Shown here: positions 8,846 through 37,535 of the stretch, piece after piece
Layout: every line of letters starts with the position of its first letter
Numbering within the stretch: the first letter of the stretch is position 1
Assembly (NCBI RefSeq): GCF_001677475.2
Contig: NZ_CP015229.1
Source: Escherichia coli
GTDB lineage: Bacteria; Pseudomonadota; Gammaproteobacteria; Enterobacterales; Enterobacteriaceae
DNA length: 64,000 bases
Direction: 5' to 3' (one strand)
Notes under the pieces: model-generated
The model's input: the letters and a program-made list of their open reading frames with translations, nothing else
What the model was told of the DNA's origin: nothing
The model's database searches: none
Made by a program: the position numbers and the translations under genes

Positions 8846-8903
8846 ATTTGTGTAATTGCCTGATTTTGATATGTTCAATCCAGCATCAAATGAAGGTTAA
8901 TTT

Positions 8904-19988: not shown

Positions 19989-20201
19989 ATAGTGGTTAAT
20001 GGCCTGCGAAAAGGCAGCTGAATCTCTTCATCATGCAGAACGGAATTGCACACAACGGACTGATACTTCTCTGGCGGATGAGAGAGGGGAAGCATTTATG
20101 TCCGGGAAAAACCACTTTATCTGACCATGCTGTTTTGTACCTGCCGGTATCCACATTTGTGGGTACCGGCTTTTTTATTCACCCTCTGTAAGGAAAAGCT
20201 G

Positions 20202-23048
20202 ATGAAACGACATCTGAACACCAGCTACAGGCTGGTATGGAATCACATTACAGGCACCCTGGTGGTGGCTTCCGAACTGGCACGCTCACGGGGAAAAGGC
20301 GCCGGTGTGGCGGTTGCTCTGTCTCTTGCTGCTGTCACGTCAGTCCCGGCACTGGCTGCTGACACGGTTGTACAGGCGGGAGAAACCGTGAACGGCGGAA
20401 CACTGACAAATCATGACAACCAGATTGTCCTCGGTACGGCCAACGGAATGACCATCAGTACCGGTCTGGAGTATGGGCCGGATAACGAGGCCAATACCGG
20501 CGGGCAATGGATACAAAATGGCGGTATCGCCAACAACACTACTGTCACCGGTGGTGGTCTTCAGAGAGTGAATGCCGGAGGAAGCGTTTCAGACACGGTT
20601 ATCAGTGCCGGAGGCGGACAGAGCCTTCAGGGGCAGGCAGTGAACACCACTCTGAACGGCGGTGAGCAGTGGGTACATGAAGGCGGGATTGCAACGGGTA
20701 CCGTCATTAATGAGAAGGGCTGGCAGGCCGTCAAATCCGGCGCAATGGCAACCGACACGGTTGTGAATACCGGCGCGGAAGGGGGACCGGATGCAGAAAA
20801 TGGTGATACCGGGCAGTTTGTTCGCGGAAATGCCGTACGTACCACCATCAATAAAAATGGTCGTCAGATTGTGGCTGCTGAAGGAACGGCAAATACCACT
20901 GTGGTTTATGCCGGCGGCGACCAGACTGTACATGGTCACGCACTGGATACCACGCTGAATGGGGGGTACCTGTATGTGCACAACGGCGGTACGGCGTCTG
21001 GCACTGTTGTAAACAGTGACGGCTGGCAGATTATCAAGGAAGGTGGTCTGGCGGATTTCACCACCGTTAACCAGAAAGGCAAACTGCAGGTGAACGCCGG
21101 TGGTACAGCCACGAATGTCACCCTGACGCAGGGAGGCGCACTGGTCACCAGTACGGCGGCAACCGTCACCGGCAGCAACCGTCTGGGCAATTTCACTGTG
21201 GAAAACGGTAATGCTGACGGTGTTGTTCTGGAGTCCGGTGGTCGCCTGGATGTACTGGAGGGCCATTCAGCGCAGAAAACATTGGTGGATGACGGCGCTA
21301 TCCTGGCAGTGTCTGCCGGTGGTAAGGCAACAGATGTCACCATGACATCCGGTGGTGCCCTGATTGCAGACAGTGGTGCCACTGTTGAGGGGACCAATGC
21401 CAGCGGTAAGTTCAGTATTGATGGCATATCCGGTCAGGCCAGCGGCCTGCTGCTGGAAAATGGCGGCAGCTTTACGGTTAATGCCGGGGGACAGGCTGGC
21501 AACACCACTGTCGGACATCGTGGAACACTGACGCTGGCTGCCGGGGGAAGTCTGAGTGGAAGAACACAGCTCAGTAAAGGCGCCAGTATGGTACTGAATG
21601 GTGATGTGGTCAGTACCGGCGATATTGTTAACGCAGGAGAGATTCACTTTGATAATCAGACGACACAGGATGCCGTACTGAGCCGTGCTGTTGCAAAAGG
21701 CGACTCCCCGGTAACGTTCCATAAACTGACCACCAGTAACCTCACCGGTCAGGGTGGCACCATCAATATGCGTGTTCGCCTTGATGGCAGCAATGCCTCT
21801 GACCAGCTGGTGATTAATGGTGGTCAGGCAACCGGCAAAACCTGGCTTGCGTTTACAAATGTCGGAAACAGTAACCTCGGGGTGGCAACCTCCGGACAGG
21901 GTATCCGGGTTGTGGATGCACAGAATGGTGCCACCACAGAAGAAGGTGCGTTTGCCCTGAGTCGCCCGCTTCAGGCCGGCGCCTTTAACTACACCCTGAA
22001 CCGTGACAGCGATGAAGACTGGTACCTGCGCAGTGAAAATGCTTATCGTGCTGAAGTCCCCCTGTATGCCTCCATGCTGACACAGGCAATGGACTATGAC
22101 CGGATTCTGGCAGGCTCCCGCAGCCATCAGACTGGTGTAAGCGGTGAAAATAACAGCGTCCGTCTCAGCATTCAGGGCGGTCATCTCTGTCACGATAACA
22201 ACGGCGGTATTGCCCGTGGAGCCACGCCGGAAAGCAGCGGCAGCTATGGCTTCGTCCGTCTGGAGGGTGACCTGCTCAGAACAGAGGTTGCCGGTATGTC
22301 TCTGACGACAGGGGTGTATGGTGCTGCAGGCCATTCTTCCGTTGATGTTAAGGATGATGACGGCTCCCGTGCCGGCACGGTCCGGGATGATGCCGACAGT
22401 CTGGGCGGATACCTGAATCTGGTACACACGTCCTCCGGCCTGTGGGCTGACATTGTGGCACAGGGAACCCGCCACAGCATGAAAGCGTCATCGGACAATA
22501 ACGACTTCCGCGCCCGGGGCTGGGGCTGGCTGGGCTCACTGGAAACTGGTCTGCCCTTCAGTATCACTGACAACCTGATGCTGGAGCCACAACTGCAGTA
22601 CACCTGGCAGGGGCTCTCCCTGGATGACGGCCAGGATAACGCCGGTTATGTGAAGTTCGGGCATGGCAGTGCACAACATGTGCGTGCCGGCTTCCGTCTG
22701 GGCAGCCACAACGATATGACCTTTGGCGAAGGCACCTCATCCCGTGACACTCTGCGCGACAGTGCAAAACACCGTGTGAGTGAACTGCCGGTGAACTGGT
22801 GGGTACAGCCTTCTGTTATCCGCACTTTCAGCTCCCGGGGTGACATGAGCATGGGTACAGCCGCAGCCGGCAGTAACATGACGTTCTCACCCTCACAGAA
22901 TGGCACATCACTGGACCTGCAGGCCGGACTGGAAGCCCGTGTCCGGGAAAATATCACCCTGGGCGTTCAGGCCGGTTATGCCCACAGTGTCAGCGGCAAC
23001 AGCGCTGAAGGCTATAACGGTCAGGCCACGCTGAATGTGACCTTCTGA
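20202..23048 (+). CDS. flu: Antigen 43 self-associating autotransporter
   Basis: MKRHLNTSYRLVWNHITGTLVVASELARSRGKGAGVAVALSLAAVTSVPALAADTVV N-terminus, repetitive beta-helical passenger, C-terminal beta-barrel ending ...GYNGQATLNVTF; 948 aa from the ATG at 20202. Confidence 0.9.
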   Translation: MKRHLNTSYRLVWNHITGTLVVASELARSRGKGAGVAVALSLAAVTSVPALAADTVVQAGETVNGGTLTNHDNQIVLGTANGMTISTGLEYGPDNEANTGGQWIQNGGIANNTTVTGGGLQRVNAGGSVSDTVISAGGGQSLQGQAVNTTLNGGEQWVHEGGIATGTVINEKGWQAVKSGAMATDTVVNTGAEGGPDAENGDTGQFVRGNAVRTTINKNGRQIVAAEGTANTTVVYAGGDQTVHGHALDTTLNGGYLYVHNGGTASGTVVNSDGWQIIKEGGLADFTTVNQKGKLQVNAGGTATNVTLTQGGALVTSTAATVTGSNRLGNFTVENGNADGVVLESGGRLDVLEGHSAQKTLVDDGAILAVSAGGKATDVTMTSGGALIADSGATVEGTNASGKFSIDGISGQASGLLLENGGSFTVNAGGQAGNTTVGHRGTLTLAAGGSLSGRTQLSKGASMVLNGDVVSTGDIVNAGEIHFDNQTTQDAVLSRAVAKGDSPVTFHKLTTSNLTGQGGTINMRVRLDGSNASDQLVINGGQATGKTWLAFTNVGNSNLGVATSGQGIRVVDAQNGATTEEGAFALSRPLQAGAFNYTLNRDSDEDWYLRSENAYRAEVPLYASMLTQAMDYDRILAGSRSHQTGVSGENNSVRLSIQGGHLCHDNNGGIARGATPESSGSYGFVRLEGDLLRTEVAGMSLTTGVYGAAGHSSVDVKDDDGSRAGTVRDDADSLGGYLNLVHTSSGLWADIVAQGTRHSMKASSDNNDFRARGWGWLGSLETGLPFSITDNLMLEPQLQYTWQGLSLDDGQDNAGYVKFGHGSAQHVRAGFRLGSHNDMTFGEGTSSRDTLRDSAKHRVSELPVNWWVQPSVIRTFSSRGDMSMGTAAAGSNMTFSPSQNGTSLDLQAGLEARVRENITLGVQAGYAHSVSGNSAEGYNGQATLNVTF

Positions 23049-23168
23049 CAGAACCATCGCCTCTTTGTGGTCCCGGTCATCATGATCGGGACCCGGACCG
23101 GCGCAACGGATATTCAACGCCACATTCGCTGGCATTAACAATAACATGATATTCATCACGGAGTGACT

Positions 23169-25685
23169 ATGTTACAGATAGTCGGCGCGCTGATCCTGCT
23201 GATAGCAGGATTTGCCATTCTTCGCCTTTTGTTCAGAGCATTAATCAGCACGGCTTCTGTGCTGGCAGGGCTTATATTGCTGTGTCTGTTCGGCCCGGCC
23301 TTACTGGCTGGCTATATCACCGAACGCATAACACGGTTGTTCCATATTCGCTGGCTGGCAGGCGTATTTCTGACGATTGCCGGAATGATCATCAGCTTCA
23401 TGTGGGGACTTGATGGTAAACATATCGCGCTGGAGGCTCACACCTTTGACTCTGTGAAATTTATTCTGACCACCGCTCTCGCCGGTGGTCTGCTGGCTGT
23501 TCCCCTGCAGATCAAAAACATTCAGCAGAACGGGATCACACCAGAAGATATCAGCAAGGAAATTAACGGGTATTACTGCTGTTTTTATACTGCCTTTTTC
23601 CTTATGGCATGTTCTGCATGCGCACCATTGATCGCGTTACAGTACGATATTTCACCGTCACTGATGTGGTGGGGCGGGTTGTTGTACTGGCTGGCTGCAT
23701 TAGTGACGCTGCTATGGGCGGCCAGCCAAATCCAGGCGCTGAAAAAACTGACCTGTGCCATCAGCCAGACACTGGAAGAACAACCGGTGCTCAACAGTAA
23801 ATCGTGGCTGACCAGTTTGCAAAACGATTACAGCCTTCCTGACTCACTGACGGAGCGCATCTGGCTGACGCTCATTTCTCAACGGATTTCCCGGGGAGAG
23901 CTGAGGGAATTTGAACTGGCAGACGGAAACTGGTTACTGAACAATGCCTGGTATGAAAGAAACATGGCAGGTTTTAACGAACAGTTGAAAGAGAACCTGT
24001 CATTCACACCTGATGAACTGAAAACGCTCTTCCGGAACCGCCTGAATTTATCACCGGAAGCGAATGACGATTTTCTCGATCGTTGCCTGGACGGCGGTGA
24101 CTGGTATCCCTTTTCAGAAGGTCGCCGTTTTGTATCATTCCATCACGTGGATGAGCTTCGTATCTGTGCCTCCTGCGGGCTGACAGAAGTACATCATGCC
24201 CCGGAAAATCATAAGCCGGATCCGGAATGGTACTGCTCCTCTCTTTGTCGCGAAACAGAAACACTGTGTCAGGAAATTTATGAACGCCCTTACAACTGTT
24301 TTATTTCCGATGCAACGGCGAATGGTCTGATTCTCATGAAACTGCCGGAAACCTGGAGTACAAATGAGAAAATGTTTGCTTCCGGAGGGCAGGGACATGG
24401 GTTTGCCGCTGAACGGGGAAACCATATTGTCGACAGAGTCCGTCTGAAAAACGCACGGATCCTCGGTGATAATAATGCCAGAAATGGAGCAGACAGACTG
24501 GTCAGCGGAACAGAAATCCAGACGAAATATTGTTCAACTGCAGCCCGTAGCGTCGGTGCGGCATTCGACGGACAAAACGGACAGTATCGTTACATGGGAA
24601 ATAATGGCCCCATGCAACTGGAAGTCCCCCGTGATCAGTATGCCGGCGCTGTTGAAACCATGAGGAATAAGATCCGCGAAGGTAAAGTACCCGGTGTAAC
24701 CGATCCCGCAGAAGCGTCCCGGCTGATTCGTCGGGGACATCTGACTTATACTCAGGCCCGTAATATCACCCGGTTCGGGACCATCGAATCGGTCACTTAT
24801 GATATTGCCGAGGGTTCGGTTGTCAGTCTGGCGGCCGGAGGGATCAGTTTTGCACTGACGGCATCGGTCTTCTGGCTCAGCACCAGCGATCGCGATGCAG
24901 CCCTGCAGACAGCTGCTGTCCAGGCAGGAAAAACCTTCACCCGCACACTGGCTGTCTACATCACAACCCAGCAACTCCACCGGCTCAGTGTTGTTCAGGG
25001 TATGCTGAAGCACATTGATTTTTCGACTGCCAGCCCGACTGTCCGACTGGCTCTTCAGAAGGGGACCGGTGCAGGAAATATCAGTGCCCTGAACAAAGTA
25101 ATGAAGGGTACGCTGGTGACATCTCTGGCACTGGTAGCTGTCACAACCGGCCCTGACATGATCAAAATGTTGCGGGGACGGATCTCCGGTGCGCAGTTCA
25201 TCAGGAATCTTGCCGTGGCATCTTCCGGTGTGGCAGGTGGTGCTGTCGGGTCAGTGGCGGGCGGAATACTGTTCAGTCCACTGGGACCATTTGGTGCACT
25301 GACAGGGCGTGTGGTTGGCGGTGTTCTGGGGGGAATGATTGCCTCCGCTGTATCAGGAAAAATTGCCGGAGCGCTGGTTGAAGAAGATCGCGTCAAAATT
25401 CTGGCAATGATTCAGGAGCAGGTGACATGGCTTGCCGGCAGTTTCCTGCTGACCGGACATGAGATTGAAAATCTGAACGAGAATCTGGCCCGTGTTATCG
25501 ATCAGAATGCTCTGGAGATCATTTTCGCCGCCGGTATACAACAACGGGCCGCGACCAATATGTTAATCAAACCACTGGTGGTCAGTATCATCAGGCAACG
25601 CCCCGTCATGGAATATGATGCATCCCATCTCGGCAATATGGTTAACCGACTGGAAGAAGCATTACCCCCGGAGTTACCGGCATAA
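23169..25685 (+). CDS. YeeR-like inner-membrane protein (uncharacterised)
   Basis: About 838 aa; several N-terminal hydrophobic helices, central Cys cluster CASCGLTEVHH...YCSSLC, Gly-rich C-terminal helices (GVAGGAVGSVAGGILF...VVGGVLGGMIASAVSG); position right after flu as for yeeR. Confidence 0.5.
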   Translation: MLQIVGALILLIAGFAILRLLFRALISTASVLAGLILLCLFGPALLAGYITERITRLFHIRWLAGVFLTIAGMIISFMWGLDGKHIALEAHTFDSVKFILTTALAGGLLAVPLQIKNIQQNGITPEDISKEINGYYCCFYTAFFLMACSACAPLIALQYDISPSLMWWGGLLYWLAALVTLLWAASQIQALKKLTCAISQTLEEQPVLNSKSWLTSLQNDYSLPDSLTERIWLTLISQRISRGELREFELADGNWLLNNAWYERNMAGFNEQLKENLSFTPDELKTLFRNRLNLSPEANDDFLDRCLDGGDWYPFSEGRRFVSFHHVDELRICASCGLTEVHHAPENHKPDPEWYCSSLCRETETLCQEIYERPYNCFISDATANGLILMKLPETWSTNEKMFASGGQGHGFAAERGNHIVDRVRLKNARILGDNNARNGADRLVSGTEIQTKYCSTAARSVGAAFDGQNGQYRYMGNNGPMQLEVPRDQYAGAVETMRNKIREGKVPGVTDPAEASRLIRRGHLTYTQARNITRFGTIESVTYDIAEGSVVSLAAGGISFALTASVFWLSTSDRDAALQTAAVQAGKTFTRTLAVYITTQQLHRLSVVQGMLKHIDFSTASPTVRLALQKGTGAGNISALNKVMKGTLVTSLALVAVTTGPDMIKMLRGRISGAQFIRNLAVASSGVAGGAVGSVAGGILFSPLGPFGALTGRVVGGVLGGMIASAVSGKIAGALVEEDRVKILAMIQEQVTWLAGSFLLTGHEIENLNENLARVIDQNALEIIFAAGIQQRAATNMLIKPLVVSIIRQRPVMEYDASHLGNMVNRLEEALPPELPA

Positions 25686-25760: not shown

Positions 25761-26216
25761 ATGATTCACCTGTTCAAAACCTGCATGATTACCGCCTTCA
25801 TTCTGGGGTTAACGTGGTCTGCCCCACTCCGGGCACAGGATCAACGTTACATCAGTATACGCAATACAGATACGATATGGCTCCCGGGAAATATTTGTGC
25901 TTACCAGTTCCGGCTGGATAATGGCGGAAACGATGAAGGATTTGGCCCCCTCACCATCACTCTGCAACTCAAAGACAAATATGGTCAGACGCTGGTGACC
26001 AGAAAAATGGAAACGGAAGCTTTTGGTGACAGTAATGCCACGCGAACCACAGACGCATTTCTGGAAACGGAGTGCGTGGAAAATATCGCCACAACCGAAA
26101 TCATTAAAGCAACTGAAGAAAGTAACGGCCATCGTGTCAGTCTGCCGTTATCGGTTTTCGATCCCCAGGACTACCATCCACTGCTAATTACCGTTTCCGG
26201 AAAAAACGTTAACTGA
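25761..26216 (+). CDS. Secreted hypothetical protein
   Basis: 151 aa with signal-peptide-like MIHLFKTCMITAFILGLTWSAPLRA; RBS AGAGAGG upstream. Confidence 0.45.
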   Translation: MIHLFKTCMITAFILGLTWSAPLRAQDQRYISIRNTDTIWLPGNICAYQFRLDNGGNDEGFGPLTITLQLKDKYGQTLVTRKMETEAFGDSNATRTTDAFLETECVENIATTEIIKATEESNGHRVSLPLSVFDPQDYHPLLITVSGKNVN

Positions 26217-26294
26217 TCCCTGAACTCAGTTTCATGCTTCAGCCTCTGTCACAACGCGTGGCAGAGGCTTTTTATTTATCAGGAGAAAACAGAT

Positions 26295-26528
26295 ATGCCG
26301 GGTTACACAGAGTATGTTCTGGCTGAAGGATCTTTCTCATACGGGCAGGCGGTTGCTGTCATAACAGCTTACCGCAATGTGTTTATCCAGAATGACCCGG
26401 GAATGCATTTCCGTTGGGTTATCCGCAACGCGGAAGGTCAGCGACGCTGGAGCTACCGGAATTCTGAACCCGATGCCGGAAAGGTGCTTAATACGCAGCT
26501 CGCCAGTGACGGTCTTCTCAGACAATAA
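26295..26528 (+). CDS. DUF905-type small protein (YkfF-like)
   Basis: 77 aa [30 protein letters not shown]...; AGGAG RBS; typical member of this island module as recalled. Confidence 0.5.
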
Positions 26529-26627
26529 ACGTCATTCATTTCACCCATCAGGCCGCGTCTTCTCCGGGAGACGTGGCTTTTTCATTTATTACACCAGTAA
26601 ATCTTAACCACCGATAAGGAGCAAATT

Positions 26628-27446
26628 ATGCGACTAGCCAGTCGTTTTGGTTATGCGAACCAGATACGCCGTGACCGTCCGCTGACACACGAAGAACTGA
26701 TGCACTATGTTCCCGGTATTTTCGGTGAAGACCGGCATACTTCCCGCAGTAAACGATATGCGTACATTCCCACTATCACCGTACTGGAAAGCCTGCAGCA
26801 GGAAGGTTTTCAGCCATTCTTCGCCTGCCAGACCCGCGTGCGCGACCCGGGCCGCCGGGGATACACCAAACACATGCTGCGTCTGCGCCGTGACGGGGAG
26901 ATAAACGGACAACATGTCCCTGAAATCATCCTGCTGAACTCCCATGACGGTACCTCCAGCTACCAGATGCTGCCGGGTTACTTCAGGTTCGTCTGCCAGA
27001 ACGGATGCGTCTGTGGTCAGTCTCTGGGGGAAGTGCGTGTTCCACACCGGGGAAATGTAGTGGAGAAAGTTATCGAAGGGGCTTACGAGGTGGTGGGCGT
27101 GTTTGACCGGATAGAGGAGAAGCGTGATGCCATGCAGTCTCTGGTTCTGCCGCCACCGGCACGCCAGGCGCTGGCACAGGCGGCACTGACTTACCGTTAT
27201 GGTGACGAACATCAGCCGGTCACCACCGCTGACATTCTGACACCACGACGCAGGGAGGATTACGGTAAGGACCTGTGGAGCGCATATCAGACCATCCAGG
27301 AGAATATGCTGAAAGGCGGAATTTCCGGTCGCAGTGCCAGAGGAAAACGTATCCACACCCGTGCCATTCACAGCATCGACACGGACATTAAGCTCAATCG
27401 CGCATTGTGGGTGATGGCAGAAACACTGCTGAAGAGTATGCGCTGA
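26628..27446 (+). CDS. DUF932-type protein (YafZ/YfjQ-like)
   Basis: 272 aa; family resemblance to YafZ/YfjQ from cryptic-prophage modules, from memory. Confidence 0.55.
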   Translation: MRLASRFGYANQIRRDRPLTHEELMHYVPGIFGEDRHTSRSKRYAYIPTITVLESLQQEGFQPFFACQTRVRDPGRRGYTKHMLRLRRDGEINGQHVPEIILLNSHDGTSSYQMLPGYFRFVCQNGCVCGQSLGEVRVPHRGNVVEKVIEGAYEVVGVFDRIEEKRDAMQSLVLPPPARQALAQAALTYRYGDEHQPVTTADILTPRRREDYGKDLWSAYQTIQENMLKGGISGRSARGKRIHTRAIHSIDTDIKLNRALWVMAETLLKSMR

Positions 27447-27536
27447 TGCCTTTTCCCTGAAAGCGCAGTTCTGACTCATGTCCGTCCCTGCCCCGCGACT
27501 TCTTCCATTCATTTACTTTTTATAAGGAATAATCTC

Positions 27537-28022
27537 ATGACAACCGTTTCGCATAATTCCACCACACCTTCTGTTTCCGTAACCGCTGTATCAGAGAATA
27601 ACCCGCCTCAACTGGTTGCCACCCTCGTCCCTGATGAACAGCGCATCAGCTTCTGGCCGCAGCACTTTGGCCTCATTCCACAGTGGGTGACCCTGGAGCC
27701 CCGTGTCTTCGGCTGGATGGACCGTCTGTGCGAAGACTACTGCGGTGGTATCTGGAATCTGTACACCCTGAACAACGGCGGGGCATTTATGGCACCCGAA
27801 CCGGATGACGATGATGACGAAGCATGGGTACTGTTCAATGCCATGAACGGTAACCGCGCTGAAATGAGCCCGGAAGCCGCCGGCATTGCTGCCTGTCTGA
27901 TGACGTACAGTCATCATGCCTGTCGTACGGAGAATTATGCCATGACAGTTCATTATTACCGGCTGCGGGATTACGCCCTGCAGCATCCGGAATGCAGCGC
28001 CATTATGCGCATCATCGACTGA
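27537..28022 (+). CDS. Antirestriction protein (KlcA/ArdB-like; YfjX/YafX type)
   Basis: 161 aa with acidic stretch PEPDDDDDEAW and conserved position immediately upstream of the RadC-like gene. Confidence 0.6.
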   Translation: MTTVSHNSTTPSVSVTAVSENNPPQLVATLVPDEQRISFWPQHFGLIPQWVTLEPRVFGWMDRLCEDYCGGIWNLYTLNNGGAFMAPEPDDDDDEAWVLFNAMNGNRAEMSPEAAGIAACLMTYSHHACRTENYAMTVHYYRLRDYALQHPECSAIMRIID

Positions 28023-28037
28023 ATGGAGGCAGGGACA

Positions 28038-28514
28038 ATGCAGCAGCTTTCCTTTCTGCCCGGAGAGATGACGCCCGGCGAGCGCAGTCTCATTCTGCGG
28101 GCCCTGAAAACCCTGGACCGCCATCTTCATGAACCCGGCGTGGCCTTCACCTCCACCCGTGCAGCACGGGAATGGCTGATTCTGAACATGGCGGGACTGG
28201 AGCGTGAAGAGTTCCGGGTGCTGTATCTGAACAACCAGAATCAGCTGATTGCCGGTGAAACCCTCTTCACCGGCACCATCAACCGCACGGAAGTCCATCC
28301 CCAGGAAGTGATTAAACGCGCCCTGTATCACAATGCCGCTGCTGTGGTGCTGGCACACAATCACCCGTCCGGTGAAGTCACCCCCAGCAAGGCAGACCGC
28401 CTTATCACGGAACGTCTGGTACAGGCACTGGGCCTGGTGGATATCCGGGTGCCGGACCATCTGATAGTCGGTGGCAGCCAGGTTTTCTCCTTTGCCGAAC
28501 ACGGTCTGCTTTAA
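28038..28514 (+). CDS. RadC-like JAB/MPN-domain protein (YeeS/YfjY/YkfG type)
   Basis: JAMM-like motif HNHPSGEVTPSKAD; GGAGG RBS 8 nt upstream of the ATG at 28038. Confidence 0.7.
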   Translation: MQQLSFLPGEMTPGERSLILRALKTLDRHLHEPGVAFTSTRAAREWLILNMAGLEREEFRVLYLNNQNQLIAGETLFTGTINRTEVHPQEVIKRALYHNAAAVVLAHNHPSGEVTPSKADRLITERLVQALGLVDIRVPDHLIVGGSQVFSFAEHGLL

Positions 28515-28582
28515 CCCGTCACCGTCACAACTACATCACACTTGTTTTCACTTTTATCTTCTGTCTTCAGAGGTATCCCATC

Positions 28583-28804
28583 ATGAAAATTATCACCCGT
28601 GGTGAAGCCATGCGTATTCACCAACAGCATCCTGCATCCCGTCTTTTTCCGTTCTGTACCGGTAAGTACCGCTGGCACGGCAGCGCTGAAGCGTATACCG
28701 GTCGTGAAGTGCAGGATATTCCCGGCGTTCTTGCCGTGTTTGCTGAACGCCGTAAGGACAGTTTTGGCCCGTATGTCCGGCTGATGAGCGTCACCCTGAA
28801 CTAA
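28583..28804 (+). CDS. DUF987 protein (YeeT-like)
   Basis: 73 aa; position between the RadC-like and antitoxin genes as in CP4-44. Confidence 0.6.
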   Translation: MKIITRGEAMRIHQQHPASRLFPFCTGKYRWHGSAEAYTGREVQDIPGVLAVFAERRKDSFGPYVRLMSVTLN

Positions 28805-28882
28805 GTCAGGAAGGGCATTCTGATGAGCCGAATTATCGCCACCATTGAACTATTCTTAACTGATTTCTGTGAGGACTTTATC

Positions 28883-29251
28883 GTGTCAGACACACTGCCC
28901 GGGACAACGCATCCCGACAACAACAACGACCGCCCCTGGTGGGGGCTACCCTGCACCGTGACGCCCTGTTTCGGTGCACGTCTGGTGCAGGAGGGTAACC
29001 GGTTGCATTACCTTGCAGACCGCGCCGGTATCAGAGGCCGGTTCAGCGACGCGGATTCGTACCACCTGGACCAGGCCTTTCCGCTGCTGATGAAACAACT
29101 GGAGCTCATGCTCACCAGCGGTGAACTGAATCCCCGCCATCAGCATACCGTGACACTGTATGCGAAGGGGCTGACCTGCGAAGCCGACACCTTCGGCTCC
29201 TGTGATTACGTTTATCTGGCTGTTTATCCGACGCCCGAAACGAAAAAGTAA
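28883..29251 (+). CDS. cbeA: CbeA (YeeU)-type antitoxin of a type IV toxin-antitoxin pair
   Basis: 122 aa from GTG at 28883: [51 protein letters not shown]...; directly upstream of the CbtA-like gene. Confidence 0.75.
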
Positions 29252-29340
29252 ACCACCGGAATAACCCTCTGCTCCGGCCTGGTGTTTTCACCACGCCACT
29301 GTCCCATTTTTTATCTCTGCATATCAGGAAAATCTTCAGT

Positions 29341-29715
29341 ATGAAAACATTACCCGACACGCATGTACGGGAGGCATCGAGCTGCCCGTCTCCCGTCACC
29401 ATCTGGCAGACACTGCTCACCCGGTTACTGGACCAGCATTACAGCCTTACGCTGAATGACACACCGTTCGCGGATGAACGTGTGATTGAGCAGCATATTG
29501 AGGCAGGCATTTCACTGTGTGATGCGGTGAATTTTCTCGTGGAAAAATACGCGCTGGTGCGTACCGACCAGCCGGGATTCAACACTTGTCCCCGCTCTCA
29601 GTTAATAAACAGTATTGATATCCTCCGGGCTCGCCGGGCGACCGGCCTGATGACCCGCGACAATTACAGAACAGTAAATAACATTACCCTTGGTAAGCAT
29701 CCGGAGAAACGATGA
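29341..29715 (+). CDS. cbtA: CbtA (YeeV)-type toxin (cytoskeleton-targeting)
   Basis: 124 aa [70 protein letters not shown]...; classic CbtA family sequence. Confidence 0.8.
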
Positions 29716-30200
29716 AACTGGCCCTGATGCTGGAAGCCGACAGCATTAATGTGCAGGCACTGAACATGGGGCGAATTGTCGTTGACGTCGATGGTGTTAA
29801 TCTCACTGAACTGATTAACAAGGTCGCTGAAAACGGTTATTCACTCCGCGTGGTGGAGGAATCCGACCAACAGTCAACCTGCACACTACCACCGTTTGCA
29901 ACCCTTGCCGGCATACGCTGCAGTACCGCACATATCACGGAAAAGGATAACGCCTGGCTGTACTCGCTGTCACACCAGACCAGTGACTTCGGTGAATCAG
30001 AATGGATTCATTTCACAGGTAGCGGATATCTGTTACGTACCGATGCGTGGTCATATCCGGTTCTGCGGCTTAAACGCCTGGGGCTGTCAAAAACGTTCCG
30101 TCGTCTGGTTGTCACACTCATCCAACGTTATGGCGTCAGTCTCATTCATCTGGATGCCAGCGCTGAATGTCTGCCGGACCTGCCCACTTTCGACTGGTAA
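29712..30200 (+). CDS. YeeW-like hypothetical protein
   Basis: 162 aa; start overlaps cbtA stop; GGAG RBS. Confidence 0.45.
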
Positions 30201-30211
30201 CCAGGAACAAC

Positions 30212-30409
30212 ATGAAATCATTAACCACGGAAACCGCACTGGATATTCTGATTGCGTGGCTACAGGACAATATCGACTGCGAATCGGGAATTATCTTTGA
30301 CAACGATGAGGATAGAACGGATTCGGCAGCACTGTTGCCCTGTATCGAACAGGCCAGAGAGGATGTCCGTACCCTGCGTCAGCTGCAGTTTCTGCAACAG
30401 AACCGGTGA
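30212..30409 (+). CDS. Small hypothetical protein
   Basis: 65 aa from ATG at 30212 with AGGA upstream; followed by a terminator hairpin. Confidence 0.35.
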   Translation: MKSLTTETALDILIAWLQDNIDCESGIIFDNDEDRTDSAALLPCIEQAREDVRTLRQLQFLQQNR

Positions 30410-30438
30410 GTCTTACTCACCAGACTTCATTCCACTGA

Positions 30439-30470
30439 CGCCAGCCTGAATACGGCTGGCGTTTTCGTTT
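30439..30470 (+). terminator. Rho-independent terminator-like hairpin
   Basis: CGCCAGCC-tgaatac-GGCTGGCG followed by TTTTCGTTT. Confidence 0.5.
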
Positions 30471-30493
30471 ATCTGCAAAAAGGAATATCGATT

Positions 30494-31336
30494 ATGTCTG
30501 AAATCACAGCCTCTCGTCCGGAAGTGGTCAACGGGCATACGGACGTTATCTGCTCAACCAGTATCCGCCACATTCTGGCTGTACGAAAGAGTACATTGCT
30601 GCAAATCGACACACTTATCCGACAACTGGCTGAAATATCAGCAATGACAGAAAGTATTAGAGGTAAAACGGCTCTGGACTGGGCCATGAAACAGGATTTT
30701 CGCTGCGGTTGCTGGCTGATGGAGAAACCGGAAACCACAATGAAAGCCATCACACGCAATCTTGATCGCGAACTCTGGCGTGATCTGATGCAACGTTCCG
30801 GGATGCTGAGTCTGATGGATGCGCAGACCCGGGACACATGGTACAGGTCACTGGAATATGATAATTTTCCGGAAATCAGCGAAGCGAACATTCTGAGCAC
30901 ATTTGAACAACTGCACCAGAACAAAGATGAAGTGTTTGAACGGGGAGTGATCAACGTCTTCAAAGGGCTGAGCTGGGATTACAAAACCAACTCACCCTGT
31001 AAATTTGGCAGTAAAATTATCGTCAACAATCTGGTGAGGTGGGACCAGTGGGGATTTCATCTTATCAGTGGAATGCAGGCAGATCGCCTGGCTGACCTGG
31101 AAAGAATGTTGCATCTGCTCAGAGGAAAACCGATCCCCGACAACCGGGGGAATATCACCATTAATCTGGATGACCACATACAGTCCGTTCAGGGTAAAGG
31201 ACGCTATGAAGATGAGATGTTCATCATTAAATACTTTAAGAAGGGATCTGCACACATCACTTTCAAAAGGCTGGAGCTGATTGACAGAATTAACGATATA
31301 ATAGCCAGGCACTTTCCTTCTGTGCTCTCAGCCTGA
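30494..31336 (+). CDS. DUF4942-like hypothetical protein at the island terminus
   Basis: 280 aa; AGGA RBS; last gene before the tRNA-Phe-derived junction; family call from memory. Confidence 0.45.
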   Translation: MSEITASRPEVVNGHTDVICSTSIRHILAVRKSTLLQIDTLIRQLAEISAMTESIRGKTALDWAMKQDFRCGCWLMEKPETTMKAITRNLDRELWRDLMQRSGMLSLMDAQTRDTWYRSLEYDNFPEISEANILSTFEQLHQNKDEVFERGVINVFKGLSWDYKTNSPCKFGSKIIVNNLVRWDQWGFHLISGMQADRLADLERMLHLLRGKPIPDNRGNITINLDDHIQSVQGKGRYEDEMFIIKYFKKGSAHITFKRLELIDRINDIIARHFPSVLSA

Positions 31337-31446
31337 CCCCGAGTTTGATTCCCTTTCGATATCAAAAGGGACTGCGGGTACAAAAGAGGGTACATCTTTC
31401 ACCAAACCAAACAAAATAAACTAATATCAACATGATAGAAGCATTC

Positions 31447-31468
31447 TTCGATTCCGAGTCCGGCACCA
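31447..31468 (+). repeat. Remnant of tRNA-Phe 3' end (T-arm, acceptor stem, CCA): island attR-type direct repeat
   Basis: TTCGATTCCGAGTCCGGCACCA matches the 3' end of E. coli tRNA-Phe except for one missing G in the acceptor stem (from memory); no upstream D or anticodon arm, so not a complete tRNA. Confidence 0.6.
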
Positions 31469-31482
31469 CTAATTCTTAAGAA

Positions 31483-31504
31483 CCCGCCCACAAGGCGGGT
31501 TTTT
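31483..31504 (+). terminator. Rho-independent terminator
   Basis: CCCGCC-cacaa-GGCGGG followed by TTTTT, immediately after the tRNA-derived repeat. Confidence 0.55.
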
Positions 31505-31560
31505 GCTTTTGGATCTGACAATAACCTTCACGAAAAAAATTAGCTTATAAAGTCTGGGGG

Positions 31561-31598
31561 AATTACTCTCGCCACGTTAACGAGAGTAATTTTATTGA
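31561..31598 (+). terminator. Strong hairpin (11-bp perfect stem) with T-rich tail
   Basis: AATTACTCTCG-ccacgttaa-CGAGAGTAATT then TTATTGAT; lies between the island junction and the gspM stop. Confidence 0.4.
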
Positions 31599-31615
31599 TA
31601 TTAATCTCCTGATAC

Positions 31616-32152
31616 TTACCCCCCTCCAAATTCCAGCCGCTGCACATTCACCATCCCTGGCTTCTCACCTACGCTGACATCAATTTGTGTCACCCGCAGC
31701 GCATATTTTTCATCCAGTGCGTTTAACCATTTCAGCAGGTCATTAAACACCACAGGTTCTATCCAGACCTGAATATTCTCCCCACGCTCGGCTATCCGCT
31801 TGATGACCACCGAGTGCGCGGAAGCACTGTCACTGATGACCCGCGATACCTGCGCAGGCGTTGTTGTGGCAGATTTTCGCGCTGCAATAATATCCGGCGC
31901 GGCGCTCTTCAGTCGCGCGTTCATCGCCACCAGCTGCTGCAACATCGTCTCCTGTTGTTCTATCCGTTCGCTCAACGGCTGCCAGATGAGGACGCAATAT
32001 CCGGCGCTAAACAGGAACACCACCGCTGCCAGTAACATGCCCTTTTCACGCGGAGAACGCCCCGCCAGGTGTTGTGTCAGCCAGTGTTCGCCACGGCTTA
32101 ACTGGCGTTCACGCCATTGCTGAAAATAGTGAATAAATTTATCGCGTAACAT
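31616..32152 (-). CDS. gspM: Type II secretion system protein M
   Basis: 178 aa, single N-terminal TM helix; last gene of the gsp operon. Confidence 0.75.
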   Translation of the reverse strand: MLRDKFIHYFQQWRERQLSRGEHWLTQHLAGRSPREKGMLLAAVVFLFSAGYCVLIWQPLSERIEQQETMLQQLVAMNARLKSAAPDIIAARKSATTTPAQVSRVISDSASAHSVVIKRIAERGENIQVWIEPVVFNDLLKWLNALDEKYALRVTQIDVSVGEKPGMVNVQRLEFGGG

Positions 32153-32156
32153 GTTA

Positions 32157-33332
32157 TTACCTCCGCAACGTTACGCCGCCGGAAACCGCATCACCCTCTT
32201 TCTGTAACGCGTCCTGTTGCACAACATAATCTGCCGCCAGTGCGCTACGCAGTTTGTCGAAACTGGCAAAGTTCGCGGCCCGCAACTGAAGGTGGAGCGT
32301 CTGGCGTTTTTGATCAAAGGTGAAACCACGCATTTCGATGTCGGAAAGTGATGCTGATTTCAGGGTGCTGGCTATCGCTGACAACTCAGCGAGCAGCCGG
32401 GTATCGTCGGCCTGTGGGCGATATTTTTTCAGCGCCATCGTCACCTGAGAGCGTAAATTCACAATCCGCTTCTGCTCCGGGAATAGCGTTAAGAACTGTT
32501 TCTCCGCCTGGGTGCGGCTTTGCGCCACCTGTTCGCTGACGCTCCATAACGTCACGCCCCGTTCCACTACCAGCGCAACCAGAATCAGCAATATCGGCAG
32601 AATCATCACCCGCCAGCGCGCCCACTGTTTTCGGTAGCTGACGCGAGGCTGCCACTGGCCGCTTAGCAAGTTCCCTTCTGGTTCTCCGAATGTGGTAATG
32701 GCTGGCAGTGCCGTGATTGTCAGGCGTTCTGCGTCCGCATCAGCCCATGTAGATAGCTCTTCCGGCGCAATACCGACCACGGTCAACGAAAGCGGTAAAT
32801 CCTGCTCATTGAGCTGTGCGCGTAACATGACCGGAGCCAGCGCCCGCCCGGCGCTCCATCCCCGGCACTCATTGATGCGGCAGATAACTCGTTGCGCATC
32901 GCCAGCCATATAGCCACAAGGAATGGACATCCAGTCCGGCGCGACGGTAGCGCGGGTGATGCCGTTTTCCTGCAACCACTGCGCAATGTTGCGCATATGC
33001 TGCTGGTGAATCACTGCCACGGTTGCCAGTTGCTGGTCGATTTTCAACGGCGCAAAATGCAGTTCGTCGATATCCTGGTTCAGTTCTTCTTCCAGTAAGG
33101 CGGGCAGAATAGTGGGTATCTCCTTACGGAGGACATCAGGCAGTTCAACCTGCCAGACGCTGATCCATTCGCCGGGAATGTAGAGTCGAATCGCATCGGT
33201 TTGCAGCCATTGCTGAAGCTGTTCGTTGTCGACGTCAGGCCAGATACCGCACTCCACGTCGGCGGTACGGCGCTGCCAGCGGATGGGGTCGGTGGCGCAA
33301 AGCGGGAAAAAAATCTCAAGCATGGAACTCAC
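32157..33332 (-). CDS. gspL: Type II secretion system protein L
   Basis: 391 aa; operon position between gspK and gspM. Confidence 0.75.
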   Translation of the reverse strand: MSSMLEIFFPLCATDPIRWQRRTADVECGIWPDVDNEQLQQWLQTDAIRLYIPGEWISVWQVELPDVLRKEIPTILPALLEEELNQDIDELHFAPLKIDQQLATVAVIHQQHMRNIAQWLQENGITRATVAPDWMSIPCGYMAGDAQRVICRINECRGWSAGRALAPVMLRAQLNEQDLPLSLTVVGIAPEELSTWADADAERLTITALPAITTFGEPEGNLLSGQWQPRVSYRKQWARWRVMILPILLILVALVVERGVTLWSVSEQVAQSRTQAEKQFLTLFPEQKRIVNLRSQVTMALKKYRPQADDTRLLAELSAIASTLKSASLSDIEMRGFTFDQKRQTLHLQLRAANFASFDKLRSALAADYVVQQDALQKEGDAVSGGVTLRR

Positions 33333-34306
33333 TCACTTTCTCCTGTCTGATGCCAGAGAACCGAAAAGTGTTGTGGCCCCATGCGGACAATTAACGAGTT
33401 CATCGTCAGTTCAATCTCATTCACGGTGATATCCGAACGCAGCCAGAAGTAATTGCTGTCCACGCTCAGGACGGTTTTTAGCTGTTTTTTAGTACGCTCA
33501 TCGACGTCAGCAAGTAGCGGCTGCGCAAGAAACTGATCGACATCTTCCCACCCCTTCGCCGGACGTTGTTGTAATAACGCCCGCGCCTGAACAGGGCTTA
33601 ACCACGGGTCAAACAGTGCTTCAAGAATCACACTTTGCGCAACGTCCAGGGTATTGATGTTGATTTGCTGGCGGGTCATCGGCAGCGCACAGACCAGCGG
33701 TTTCAGTTTTTGATAAAGCCCGGCGTCCATTCCCTGCACCACTCGCATCTCGCTGATATCAGCTAACGGTTGATTAGCGGCGTAGAACGGCACCGAGCGG
33801 GCGAGATACTCGCTGTCTTCACGCCCCAGACGCGTCTGCACGCTGCGGTCTTCATCAATAAACTCCCACAGGCTTTCGGCTATCAGTTCGGCCCGATAAG
33901 CAGGCACATCCAGGCGCGAGATCAGGGCAATCAGTTGTTGTACCGCGATAGGACGCGACGCCGTCGTCGGCTGAGCGAGGGCATTCAGGTTAAAGCAGGC
34001 CTGTGCGTCGCGCAGGGTGACGGCAATTTGCCCCTGCGGCAGTGGGAAGAAACGAGGGCCGGATGCCCACGGCTGTGCCAGATGCACGCGTTGTTCATTT
34101 TTCAGGCTCAGACTGAGTGCGCTCAACGCCAGGCTTTCTGCACTGGCGCTGTACCACAGCGCCTGCTGGTACTCCTGCTGGCTGCGCGTTCGCCCAAGTT
34201 GTTGCTGCATCCGCCCGGAAAGCGTGATGGTTACCAGCATCATAACCGCCAGCAATATCAGCACCACAACCAGTGCCATTCCGCGTTTTGGTGGTGAGGT
34301 GATCAT
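33329..34306 (-). CDS. gspK: Type II secretion minor pseudopilin K
   Basis: 325 aa with N-terminal hydrophobic helix; overlaps gspJ stop. Confidence 0.75.
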   Translation of the reverse strand: MITSPPKRGMALVVVLILLAVMMLVTITLSGRMQQQLGRTRSQQEYQQALWYSASAESLALSALSLSLKNEQRVHLAQPWASGPRFFPLPQGQIAVTLRDAQACFNLNALAQPTTASRPIAVQQLIALISRLDVPAYRAELIAESLWEFIDEDRSVQTRLGREDSEYLARSVPFYAANQPLADISEMRVVQGMDAGLYQKLKPLVCALPMTRQQININTLDVAQSVILEALFDPWLSPVQARALLQQRPAKGWEDVDQFLAQPLLADVDERTKKQLKTVLSVDSNYFWLRSDITVNEIELTMNSLIVRMGPQHFSVLWHQTGESE

Positions 34307-34908
34307 GATAATTGCGGCCCGCGTAACAACCAGATGCGTTCAATCTCGCCCCATTGCGGCGAATGCAGAGTCATGCGCACTGCCACAGGGATCGCCTGCA
34401 CTGATGACCAGCTCTCCTGCCAGCGCGTGCCGTCGTAGAACTGCAAACGGAGCGAATCTGCCGGGATTAATTTTTGCGTTGTTGGCTTCACGCTGCCTGC
34501 TGCATCGGTCAGCGGCCAGGCTAACCGTTCGAGATAACCGTCATGAATGCGGTAACCAACGGTGAGCAGATTACTGCGCGGCAGGCGCATCAACGGATTA
34601 ACCACACCGCCACGCACAAAGCGCATCCCTTCACTCTCAGACGCCAGCACGCCAGCGCCAGCCAGTAACGCCGGTTCCCGCTGGCCCTGATCGCCTCTTA
34701 CCGGGCGTGGCATCATTTGTGTCAGATCGTGGGTCAGAAAACTCATCGTTTGCTGCATGAGGTTTAGTTTTTGATCGTGTCCGGCGACGGCGCTATTCAC
34801 GCGCGTGACGCCGTTTGTCACCTGCTGCGCCATCAGCGCCAGTGAGGCAAAAATGGCGATTGCCACCAGCATTTCCAGTAACGTTAAACCAGCGTGGGTC
34901 CTTTTCAC
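34303..34908 (-). CDS. gspJ: Type II secretion minor pseudopilin J
   Basis: Prepilin-type N-terminus MKRTHAGLTLLEMLVAIA. Confidence 0.8.
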   Translation of the reverse strand: MKRTHAGLTLLEMLVAIAIFASLALMAQQVTNGVTRVNSAVAGHDQKLNLMQQTMSFLTHDLTQMMPRPVRGDQGQREPALLAGAGVLASESEGMRFVRGGVVNPLMRLPRSNLLTVGYRIHDGYLERLAWPLTDAAGSVKPTTQKLIPADSLRLQFYDGTRWQESWSSVQAIPVAVRMTLHSPQWGEIERIWLLRGPQLS

Positions 34909-35276
34909 TGTTGGCCTCCCACGGCGCTAAACCAGGCGCGTCGTGACTGAATCACCGGCGAAAAATCTTCGTGACGGCTGACTTCAATATCCACCGCCTG
35001 GAGCAGCGCGTTACCGGTATTCAGCGGTGTGGTTCGCCAGTACCAGCGGCTTCCTGCCATATCGCTCTCGCCCTGGTGCCTGACCGCCCGTTGTTCGCGG
35101 GTCATCAGGTAGAGTAGAGCGGTCTGGTTTTCAGCTACCCAGCCCGCTACTGTTTTCTCCTCAAGAACTTGCTGATTACTCAGCGCACCGCTGGCAATCT
35201 GTAACACTGCCGTGGCAGCCAGCGCAAAAATCGCCAGCGCGAGCATCACTTCCAGCAACGTAAATCCGCGCTTCAT
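34905..35276 (-). CDS. gspI: Type II secretion minor pseudopilin I
   Basis: Prepilin-type N-terminus MKRGFTLLEVMLALAIF. Confidence 0.8.
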   Translation of the reverse strand: MKRGFTLLEVMLALAIFALAATAVLQIASGALSNQQVLEEKTVAGWVAENQTALLYLMTREQRAVRHQGESDMAGSRWYWRTTPLNTGNALLQAVDIEVSRHEDFSPVIQSRRAWFSAVGGQQ

Positions 35277-35836
35277 GGCATCCTCTCATCACATTGATTG
35301 AGGGATAACGCGCCATCGTGCGCCAGTTTTACCGCCCAACATGCGTTTTGCACCGCCGAGTAAAAGCGCAGCGTAAACGGCGTGGCGGGTTCAAAAGGCG
35401 AAAAACGGATCTGCGGCGTCTTCTTTTTCGCCTCTTTTTGCAGCTCCAGTTCAATATCATGCAGCGTCAGGCGACGACGTTGCAGCTCCAGCGCATACTC
35501 TTTCTGCCAGATATCACTTCCGGGTTGTAACAGCATCTGCACCTGTTTCGACACCGTAACCTGTGCCGATAACCGGGTCGCAGAAACGGGCAACCACTGC
35601 CCCTGACGACGTTGCATAAACTGGTAGCCAGGTGGGTCGATTAGCACACCGAGTGTTTTCCCTTCGATCACTGCCCTGTCCTTAAACTGCGCAAAGCGAG
35701 TCAGAAAATCCTGCGCCGCTTTTTTCGCAGGCGATTCAGAATCGGTCGCAAAAGTCTGTACCACGCCCACACTGGCAAGGCCGATAAGGAAAATCACCAG
35801 CATGATTTCCAGAAGAGTGAATCCGCGTCCAGGCAC
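35273..35836 (-). CDS. gspH: Type II secretion minor pseudopilin H
   Basis: Prepilin-type N-terminus GRGFTLLEIMLVIF. Confidence 0.8.
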   Translation of the reverse strand: MPGRGFTLLEIMLVIFLIGLASVGVVQTFATDSESPAKKAAQDFLTRFAQFKDRAVIEGKTLGVLIDPPGYQFMQRRQGQWLPVSATRLSAQVTVSKQVQMLLQPGSDIWQKEYALELQRRRLTLHDIELELQKEAKKKTPQIRFSPFEPATPFTLRFYSAVQNACWAVKLAHDGALSLNQCDERMP

Positions 35837-35839
35837 TGA

Positions 35840-36295
35840 TTACTGAAACTCCTGCAAATTCCAGTTACCGATATCTGCGCCAGCGCCTTCCCCGTTTTCC
35901 TGACCATCCGCCCCTAAGGTGTAAACATCAAACATCCCTTTTTCGCCAGGGCTGAGATACTGATAATCATTGCCCCACGGATCTTTTGGCAGTCGTTTAA
36001 TGTATCCACCGGTACGGTAGTTGCGGGAATCCGCCATATTGGCCGGTTGCTGGATCAGCGCTTCCAGCCCCTGTTCGGTGGTCGGATAACGCCCGTTATC
36101 CAGTCGGTACATATCCAGCGCGTTCTCCAGCGCCACGATATCGCTGATGGCTTTTTGCCGATCCGCTTTCTCTTTATTGCCCAACAGGTTAGGCACCACC
36201 AGACTTGCCAGGACGCCAAGAATAACAATCACCACCATCACTTCCAGCAGGGTAAAACCTGCCCGTGGTTTTTGTGTGCGGGATAACGAATTCAT
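35840..36295 (-). CDS. gspG: Type II secretion major pseudopilin G
   Basis: MNSLSRTQKPRAGFTLLEVMVVIVILGVLASLVVPNLLGNKEKADRQKA; GGAG RBS 7 nt upstream of the ATG at 36295. Confidence 0.85.
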   Translation of the reverse strand: MNSLSRTQKPRAGFTLLEVMVVIVILGVLASLVVPNLLGNKEKADRQKAISDIVALENALDMYRLDNGRYPTTEQGLEALIQQPANMADSRNYRTGGYIKRLPKDPWGNDYQYLSPGEKGMFDVYTLGADGQENGEGAGADIGNWNLQEFQ

Positions 36296-36311
36296 GTGAT
36301 AACTCCGTAAA

Positions 36312-37535
36312 TTACATTCCAACCATATTGTTCAGTTGCAGCATCGGCTCGAGGATGGCGATGACGATAAACAGCACCACGCCCGCCATCATCACCACCA
36401 GCGCCGGTTCAAACAGCCCTAACGCCAGCCCCACCTGGGTATCAAATTCCCGTTCCTGGTTGACTGCGGCCTGCTCAAGCATGGTTTCCAGTTCGCCGCT
36501 CTGTTCGCCGGAGGCGATCATGTACAGCATCATCGGCGGGAACAGGCGCAACTCCGCCAGCGCAGCGCGCAGACTGCTTCCTTCGCGGACGCGATCTGCC
36601 GCCAGCAGCAGTTGTTGTTCGACATAGCGATTTGCCGACACGGCGGCAGCTGTCTGAATGCCTTCCAGTAGCGGAACACTGCTGGCGGTGAGGATGCTTA
36701 ACGTGCGGGAAAAACGCGCCGTATTCAGCCCGCGCGCAACACGCCCCGTCACGGGCAAACGCAGCAAGGTTTTATCCCAGCGCAAGCGCATGGCAGGATT
36801 TTTGAGTAGCCGTTGCCCCAGCACCAGAAGCCCCAGCAAACCTACCAGCCAGTAAACGCCGCTGGTCTGTAACGTGTCGCTCATGGCGATGAGCATTCGG
36901 GTGGAGGCAGGCAGCGCGTGTCCGAGATGATCAAACTGTTCGATGATTTTCGGCACCACTGCCGTCAGCAAAATAGTGACCACGCCCGTTGCCACCACCA
37001 GCAGTACCAGCGGATAGAGCATGGCCTGCAGCAGGCGTGATTTCAGGCGCTGCCGCTGTTCGGTGTAATCCGCCAGGCGATTGAGCACCACATCGAGATG
37101 CCCGGATTTTTCTCCGGCAGCGACCATCGAACAAAACAGGGAGTCAAAGACGCGGGGATGTTCGCGCAGGCTGTCCGACAGGGTATAGCCTTCCTGAATC
37201 CGACTGCGCAGCGCCATTCCGAGGCTTTTCACATGCAGTTTTTCACTTTGCTCACTGACCGCCTGTAAGCAGGTTTCCAGCGGCATTGCTGCCTGCACCA
37301 GCGTTGCCAGTTGGCGCGTGAACAGCGCCAAATCTGCCGCCGCCACGCGACGATGTGCGTGCCGCCGACGCTGCAACATTCCCCCTGTCGAAGCATTCAG
37401 CCGGGCTTCAATGTGCACGGGGATAAGCTCTTTACCACGCAACAATTGACGGGCATGACGCGCGGAATCCGCCTCAATCATGCCTTTGGTTTTGCGACCA
37501 TTACGCTCCAGCGCCTGATAGTAAAACAGTGCCAT
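36312..37535 (-). CDS. gspF: Type II secretion inner-membrane platform protein F
   Basis: 407 aa polytopic membrane protein; overlaps gspE stop. Confidence 0.8.
   Translation of the reverse strand: MALFYYQALERNGRKTKGMIEADSARHARQLLRGKELIPVHIEARLNASTGGMLQRRRHAHRRVAAADLALFTRQLATLVQAAMPLETCLQAVSEQSEKLHVKSLGMALRSRIQEGYTLSDSLREHPRVFDSLFCSMVAAGEKSGHLDVVLNRLADYTEQRQRLKSRLLQAMLYPLVLLVVATGVVTILLTAVVPKIIEQFDHLGHALPASTRMLIAMSDTLQTSGVYWLVGLLGLLVLGQRLLKNPAMRLRWDKTLLRLPVTGRVARGLNTARFSRTLSILTASSVPLLEGIQTAAAVSANRYVEQQLLLAADRVREGSSLRAALAELRLFPPMMLYMIASGEQSGELETMLEQAAVNQEREFDTQVGLALGLFEPALVVMMAGVVLFIVIAILEPMLQLNNMVGM

Follow-up and report, generated by a model that had tools for sequence, protein, structure and literature searches.

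Relatives of the gene reported here are found in plasmid leading regions, which enter a recipient cell first. Among the leading-region gene families of Samuel et al. (2024; PMC11541004), YdiA and YgfB are families 24 and 76, the DUF4942 family being the 24th largest. DUF932/YubP-YafZ, KlcA and DUF905 are among the top families of the same study, and uncharacterised leading-region families were inferred to be probably involved in anti-defence. Within a 64,000-nt stretch of Escherichia coli DNA (contig NZ_CP015229.1; the whole stretch is referred to as the window), a DUF4942 gene closes a genomic island at a tRNA-Phe junction:

30494..31336, + strand: standalone DUF4942 (YdiA-family) coding sequence of 280 aa, recognized from the open reading frame (ORF), Pfam, an AlphaFold2 model, substitution rates and RefSeq

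Judged by its sequence, this gene is a chromosomal-island paralogue of the plasmid leading-region YdiA/YgfB family.

The ORF comprises 843 nt from an ATG start codon (program ORF list) and a purine-rich ribosome-binding site, AAAGGAA, is located 7 nt 5' of this ATG. Residues 87-275 of the protein match positions 1-189 of the 190-position profile PF13708 (DUF4942; Pfam scan, E 1.7e-66), and the score of 223.9 bits lies above the gathering cut-off of 25 bits across the whole domain. RefSeq annotates the same 843-nt coding sequence at 99.3% nucleotide identity as “DUF4942 domain-containing protein” (WP_001290183.1), the window copy differing from this closest match by ~0.7% of nucleotides. The original prediction, made from the letters of the window and its ORF list, of an intact 280-aa DUF4942-like ORF was thus exactly right. 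Pairwise Nei-Gojobori comparison of the window copy with five island paralogues yielded ratios of nonsynonymous to synonymous substitution rates (dN/dS) of 0.09-0.18 at dS 0.35-0.55, and the DUF4942 protein is therefore under purifying selection. As the + frame holds this selection signal, the antisense ORFs that overlap 30494..31336 in the ORF list are by-products. The ORF is a functional standalone DUF4942 gene.

An exhaustive HMMER scan of cluster representatives identified 2191 homologues at E <=0.001. Because most of them are 255-300 aa long and align over their full length, the 280-aa form is taken to be the native architecture and not a truncation at the island edge. Plasmid homologues measure 282-286 aa and end in a C-terminal motif similar to that of the window protein. 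Truncated copies do exist (e.g. H54-H56), the islands are cryptic and rich in insertion sequences, and a terminator-like hairpin is located just upstream of the gene, all of which would fit a functionless hitch-hiker or a decaying remnant of the island edge. Such a fate is very improbable and disfavoured by the low dN/dS at dS values of up to 0.55, by the full-length, intact ORF in 3642 genomes and by a length and C-terminal motif that are the same as in the plasmid homologues.

A tblastn search detected homologues at 35-39% identity on 4358 of 72,556 plasmids (4000 typed as conjugative), whose carriers are mainly Klebsiella, Escherichia and Salmonella. The homology spans residues 14-278 (95% of the protein) and leads to IncI, IncL/M and IncF genes that are annotated as DUF4942 and whose products give the same PF13708 match. 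On the IncI-gamma/K1 plasmid pE17.16, the order is ssb, psiB, psiA, ardA and then the DUF4942 gene, with one small opposite-strand ORF before nikA and the origin of transfer (oriT). IncL/M plasmids (pOXA-48-type) carry the gene upstream of mobA-traI, together with genes for a JAB protein, a KlcA-type antirestriction protein and ssb, and on an IncFIB/FII Klebsiella plasmid it is located between psiA and traM. In every case, the DUF4942 gene is co-oriented with the leading-region genes, the orientation in which it would be transcribed from the transferred strand. Standalone members that are more distantly related occupy an IncP-like KorA-IncC-KorB block, where a C5 methylase lies at a distance of two genes, as well as a KfrA/integrase/TraG element and the RecT early region of a phage.

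This co-location and co-orientation with ArdA, KlcA, PsiB and SSB in the leading regions of three plasmid backbones could also be expected of a protein-binding inhibitor or decoy that neutralizes a host defence or repair protein without contacting nucleic acid (compare ArdB/KlcA and PsiB), as could the probable anti-defence nature of uncharacterised leading-region families (PMC11541004). We regard an inhibitor of this kind as quite unlikely, given that the protein is not acidic like the DNA mimics (isoelectric point (pI) 7.7; family median 7.3), that no family of the defence and anti-defence collection PADLOC-DB matched it at E values of up to 0.1, and that a shared DNA substrate offers the easier explanation for the recurrent fusion of its relatives to the catalytic domain of a DNA methyltransferase. 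DNA-mimic antirestriction proteins of the ArdA or Ocr type (pI about 4) were considered separately and rejected on the near-neutral pI, the basic C-terminal subdomain (pI 9.4) being a further argument against such a mechanism; PADLOC, Pfam and PDB searches revealed no similarity of the window protein to them.

The fusions concern a minority of the relatives, six proteins of 460-543 aa, namely P0186, P0189, P0190, P0247, gp22 of the Pseudomonas phage phiPSA1 and EVB37_079 of the Rhizobium phage RHph_TM3_3_3; phage matches are mostly of this fused form. In these proteins, the whole DUF4942 unit, including the N-terminal helix, is followed by motif X (F[FY]xTP, in five of the six) and by motifs I (EPSAGxG) and IV ([DN]PP[FY]), both present in all six, and the order X-I-IV is that of gamma-type N6-adenine methyltransferases. 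The C-terminal domains give weak matches to the Pfam family MTS, and that of P0186, the only one tested, weakly resembles the catalytic domain of M.TaqI (E 0.04). The fused methyltransferase domain lacks a recognition domain, so that contact with the substrate would most obviously fall to the DUF4942 unit. A general scheme in which the standalone protein and an adjacent methyltransferase represent a split gene was dismissed, as a methylase was found nearby in only some of ten-odd contexts and never in the E. coli module.

Some members of the family bear the source names “restriction methylase,” “Restriction endonuclease subunit M” or “Methyltransferase domain,” a label that goes back to the fused relatives, and the window protein matches phrog_6263 “DNA methyltransferase” (E 1e-15). 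That it is itself a DNA methyltransferase or a subunit of a restriction methylase is nevertheless hardly credible, being contradicted by three results: a regular-expression search of the window protein found none of the methyltransferase motifs X, I and IV ((D/N/S)PP(Y/F/W)), no methyltransferase family of Pfam matched it, and its AlphaFold2 model exhibits no Rossmann-like, seven-stranded alpha/beta fold. No catalytic motif had been recognized by eye in the original prediction, and the proposed profile and structure homology searches led to no assignment to a well-characterised enzyme family; NCBIfam gave no match for the window protein. The DUF4942 protein is no methyltransferase, nor is it a member of any known enzyme family. 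PF13708 itself presumably once bore a methyltransferase name.

The AlphaFold2 model, built from a 94-sequence alignment, is confident, with a predicted local distance difference test score (pLDDT) of 88 and a predicted template modelling score (pTM) of 0.81. It predicts a long N-terminal helix (residues 21-53), a helical bundle (79-159) and a basic alpha/beta subdomain (~160-275; pI 9.4), the latter in the order helix, three strands, two helices, three strands, helix. Neither phmmer nor the 94-sequence profile matched a solved structure in the PDB, and the fold as predicted is without a solved relative. The C-terminal subdomain can be superposed on the DNA-binding saddle fold of LAGLIDADG endonucleases and WhiA over 70-78 residues at a root-mean-square deviation of 2.6-3.1 A, and its top fold matches include several LAGLIDADG-family members. 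Membership in that family is not supported, as it would call for structural similarity at a significant level together with a conserved LAGLIDADG helix bearing a catalytic acidic residue, a combination that was not found. Conservation was scored in the 94-sequence alignment A1 (~31% mean column identity), in which W95, D201, H254 and N267 are invariant and D91, S160, Y163, N166 and R204 nearly so. The window protein carries the family-invariant residues as well as the motifs LSWDYKTN and HxTFKR...N.

Such a set of residues would be in keeping with an enzyme of a type not recognised so far, such as a nuclease or a hydrolase that modifies DNA or nucleotides, acting on incoming DNA or on a component of host defence. 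The unit is moreover conserved as strongly as the neighbouring catalytic methyltransferase domain, its best fold matches are LAGLIDADG endonucleases, and Rpn nucleases are likewise enriched in leading regions. The phage fusions would on this view unite two activities in a single protein. An enzymatic role is considered unlikely, albeit with a definite share of credence.

Preference is given instead, tentatively and with considerable doubt, to a non-catalytic, nucleic-acid-engaging establishment or anti-restriction factor that acts as a mobile element enters a new cell. That the DUF4942 protein would engage nucleic acid during the establishment of the incoming element is suggested by the recurrent methyltransferase fusions, by a subdomain that is basic and saddle-like, and by the location next to anti-restriction genes in the part of plasmids that enters first. 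In phages, the fused unit of ~270 aa would presumably bring the minimal gamma-type N6-adenine methyltransferase to its DNA substrate. The standalone protein would bind this target too, and would help to evade restriction either by shielding it or by attracting a methylase in trans.

Several points weigh against this proposal. The island module contains no methyltransferase that could be recruited, and the invariant polar residues D201, H254 and N267 would also suit an enzyme. Within the fusions, the DUF4942 unit is conserved as well as the methyltransferase domain (24-48% vs 33-47% pairwise identity), which weakens the idea of a classical target recognition domain (TRD); conservation of this kind is unlike that of a hypervariable recognition domain and points to a fixed target, or possibly to a catalytic site of the unit's own. 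In addition, the terminator-like hairpin is located 30 nt 5' of the DUF4942 start codon, so that expression in the island is uncertain. In pESBL, only part of the leading-region genes is induced early (PMC12672017), and a literature search found no experimental work on the DUF4942 family, the name occurring in annotation tables only.

The text of the early-conjugation RNA-seq study of pESBL (PMC12672017) does not mention the DUF4942 homologue. No functional study of YoeF/CP4-44 or of ydiA/IncI1 was found in the literature, and nothing relevant for L0010, L0009 or LEE. K-12 YoeF, which lies at the end of CP4-44, was considered as a DUF4942 fragment and rejected, as BLASTP revealed no similarity (E 5.9).

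In the window, the DUF4942 gene follows a series of genes on the same strand:

26628-27446, + strand: DUF932 gene (Pfam)
27537-28022, + strand: gene for an ArdB/KlcA-type antirestriction protein (Pfam)
28023-28514, + strand: RadC/JAB gene (Pfam)
28583-28804, + strand: DUF987 gene (Pfam)
28823-29251, + strand: gene for the CbeA antitoxin (Pfam)
29341-29715, + strand: gene for the CbtA toxin (Pfam)
26628..29715, + strand: the co-oriented part of the module before DUF5983 as a whole, formed by the six genes above (Pfam; order shared with five other islands)
29712..30200, + strand: DUF5983 (YeeW-like) gene (Pfam DUF5983_N and DUF5983)
30212..30409, + strand: DUF957 gene, the conserved 5' neighbour (198-nt RefSeq coding sequence in the O157:H16 locus L001, 99% identical, and in four other islands)

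The order DUF932, ArdB/KlcA, RadC/JAB, DUF987, CbeA (YeeU), CbtA, DUF5983, DUF957, DUF4942 is constant in five other islands, at pheV, on the pheU side or next to cadC, at tRNA-Ser (serX) and adjacent to kps; in these loci, a hypothetical gene is sometimes inserted between DUF987 and YeeU/CbeA. The 80-aa ORF version of DUF957 had no Pfam match in the window scan. CbeA is listed as an ORF of 142 aa, its Pfam domain begins at residue 38 and RefSeq homologues are ~122 aa long; the true start is probably an internal codon.

A survey of terminal positions, as had been suggested, revealed that DUF4942 closes the module every time and is usually, not always, the terminal gene of the island, since in some islands AbiE toxin genes, an IS110 fragment or kps lie beyond it. 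Of 5426 complete E. coli genomes, 4008 carry the gene, 3642 of them at full length, with a median of two copies and a maximum of seven places per genome. In 1201 of the complete genomes, at least 80% coverage was found for a 1.6-kb segment that begins at the end of DUF5983, includes DUF957 and DUF4942 and reaches into yghD; the RefSeq annotation of this segment agrees (locus L001).

The boundary between the island and the core chromosome comprises three features:

31447..31468, + strand: 3' remnant of tRNA-Phe (TTCGATTCCGAGTCC-GGCACCA), the right-end direct repeat or attR core (alignment with K-12 pheV)
31477..31505, + strand: native terminator hairpin of pheV, part of the core chromosome (terminator scan; identical to K-12)
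31616..32152, - strand: yghD (GspM-family), the first core gene past the island (ORF list; matching RefSeq loci)

The claim that DUF4942 is the last island gene before a tRNA-derived junction holds, as no ORF intervenes between its stop codon and the pheV remnant. In the alignment, 31447-31468 corresponds to the last 22 nt of K-12 pheV minus one G. The sequence 3' of 31447 matches pheV-terminator-yghD of K-12 nearly base for base and the 5' side is unrelated to K-12. ARAGORN found no intact tRNA in the 64-kb window and the junction is therefore a tRNA remnant. The core repeat is also present in L001 and in the tRNA-Phe islands L014 and L015. All four of the tRNA-Phe island junctions that were compared share the attR sequence GAGTCCGGCACCA, in which two G replace the three of pheV. 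The stretch from the DUF4942 stop codon to attR holds an inverted repeat (CCCTTT, 31351-56; AAAGGG, 31365-70) and a direct repeat, GGGTACA, in two copies 12 bp apart (31376-82 and 31388-94), and the block 31351-31394 is kept in L014 and L015. These repeats could be putative arm sites for an integrase or excisionase.

A factor that serves the island itself, by setting recombination directionality or regulation at attR or by modulating the CbtA/CbeA-YeeW genes, would account for the invariable place at the end of the module, for the distance of 110 bp to attR in tRNA-Phe islands, for the short repeats beyond the stop codon and for the strict linkage with DUF5983 and DUF957. It appears improbable in view of homologues on thousands of plasmids and in phages without attR or nearby CbtA/CbeA, of the AbiE, IS110 and kps cargo beyond the gene in some islands, and of a protein size much larger than that of known excisionases.

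The window gene is terminal and co-oriented with leading-type genes; the island has no known oriT or relaxase, and none was found in it. The right arm of the island (26628-31336) consists mostly of leading-region families (DUF932/YubP, KlcA, DUF4942) or of their companions (RadC/JAB, as in IncL/M), and all its genes are directed toward the end of the island, in the way that leading genes face oriT. By analogy, the idea arises that the right arm might be a fossil or active leading region. A bolder form of the establishment-factor proposal, and a rather long shot, is that DUF4942 represents a new fold that binds incoming DNA early, perhaps as a single strand or a fixed structure and not through a variable sequence, and then either delivers adenine methylation to this DNA (in cis in the phage fusions, in trans for the standalone form) or protects it against restriction, the right arm of CP4-type tRNA islands being a preserved leading region. 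If so, widespread cryptic islands would undergo, or would until recently have undergone, single-strand transfer that starts at an origin close to attR.

The DUF4942 gene is separated from DUF957 by a short spacer:

30410..30493, + strand: DUF957-DUF4942 intergenic element of 84 nt (terminator scan, RNA fold, island comparison)

Over five island copies, this spacer retains ~95% mean identity at a coding dS of 0.35-0.55. Two hairpins were located, one at 30405-30421 spanning the DUF957 stop codon and the terminator-like one at 30437-30463 with a T-run; the region 30405-30493 folds as RNA with -32.7 kcal/mol (z -4.95). A scan of 26000-31700 yielded no credible Rfam family. The spacer may act as a conserved regulatory element, for instance as a terminator or attenuator.

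Beyond the module, an 840-aa ORF (23163-25685) is located between an AIDA/Ag43-type autotransporter gene (20127-23048) and DUF932 and has no Pfam match at E <=1e-5. The left part of the window, 2217-10101, is a pile-up of insertion sequences with two IS21-type IstA/IstB pairs on opposite strands, an ISL3-type transposase fragment and an IS256/Mutator-type transposase. On the core side, yghD is followed by the gspL-to-gspG genes of a type II secretion cluster, and gspM, L, K, J, I, H and G of this yghD-side cluster are intact at 31616-36322. In L001 (8471-10454), which is otherwise 99% identical, yghD is directly followed by a truncated pitB. The K-12 yghE (L013) measures only 861 nt compared with 1176 nt for the gspL-like ORF of the window.

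Both gene and family were already known as uncharacterised entities and are annotated in thousands of genomes. The present analysis goes beyond the original prediction by placing the module at several integration sites, by connecting it with the plasmid YdiA/YgfB genes and by identifying relatives fused to an adenine methyltransferase; its added value lies in the link between the island gene and plasmid leading regions and in the correction of the methyltransferase label. The family is among the most abundant uncharacterised ones near oriT of IncI, IncL/M (pOXA-48-type) and IncF resistance plasmids. Knowing what it does would close a gap in the understanding of how resistance plasmids and islands become established in new hosts and would correct a widespread mis-annotation as methyltransferase.

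Compared with known systems, the window copy is the same gene as the DUF4942 genes of the CP4-like modules of E. coli. It shares 85-99% nucleotide identity with them and occupies the identical place after DUF5983 and DUF957, the pheV-yghD junction being the same in 1201 genomes. As no substantive difference exists, it is an ordinary and very common island gene of E. coli. With the fusions of phages and mobile elements, the whole unit of 260-275 aa can be aligned, and the fused sequences also show the residues that are invariant among standalone members. These proteins, however, continue for ~190-270 aa as a gamma-type N6-adenine methyltransferase (EPSAGxG, NPPF and, in five of six, F[FY]xTP), whereas the window protein stops before this domain, and the likeness to M.TaqI-type gamma N6-adenine methyltransferases is confined to the partner domain of the fusions. 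The plasmid YdiA/YgfB family agrees with the window protein in length, in its invariant residues and in homology over the full length. Its neighbours, including antirestriction, RadC/JAB, DUF905 and SSB-type genes, are shared with the island, DUF905 having been seen in other island copies. The difference is one of position: the plasmid genes are separated from a known oriT by no more than a few ORFs and are the first to enter a recipient, whereas the window gene is located at the end of an island, next to attR.
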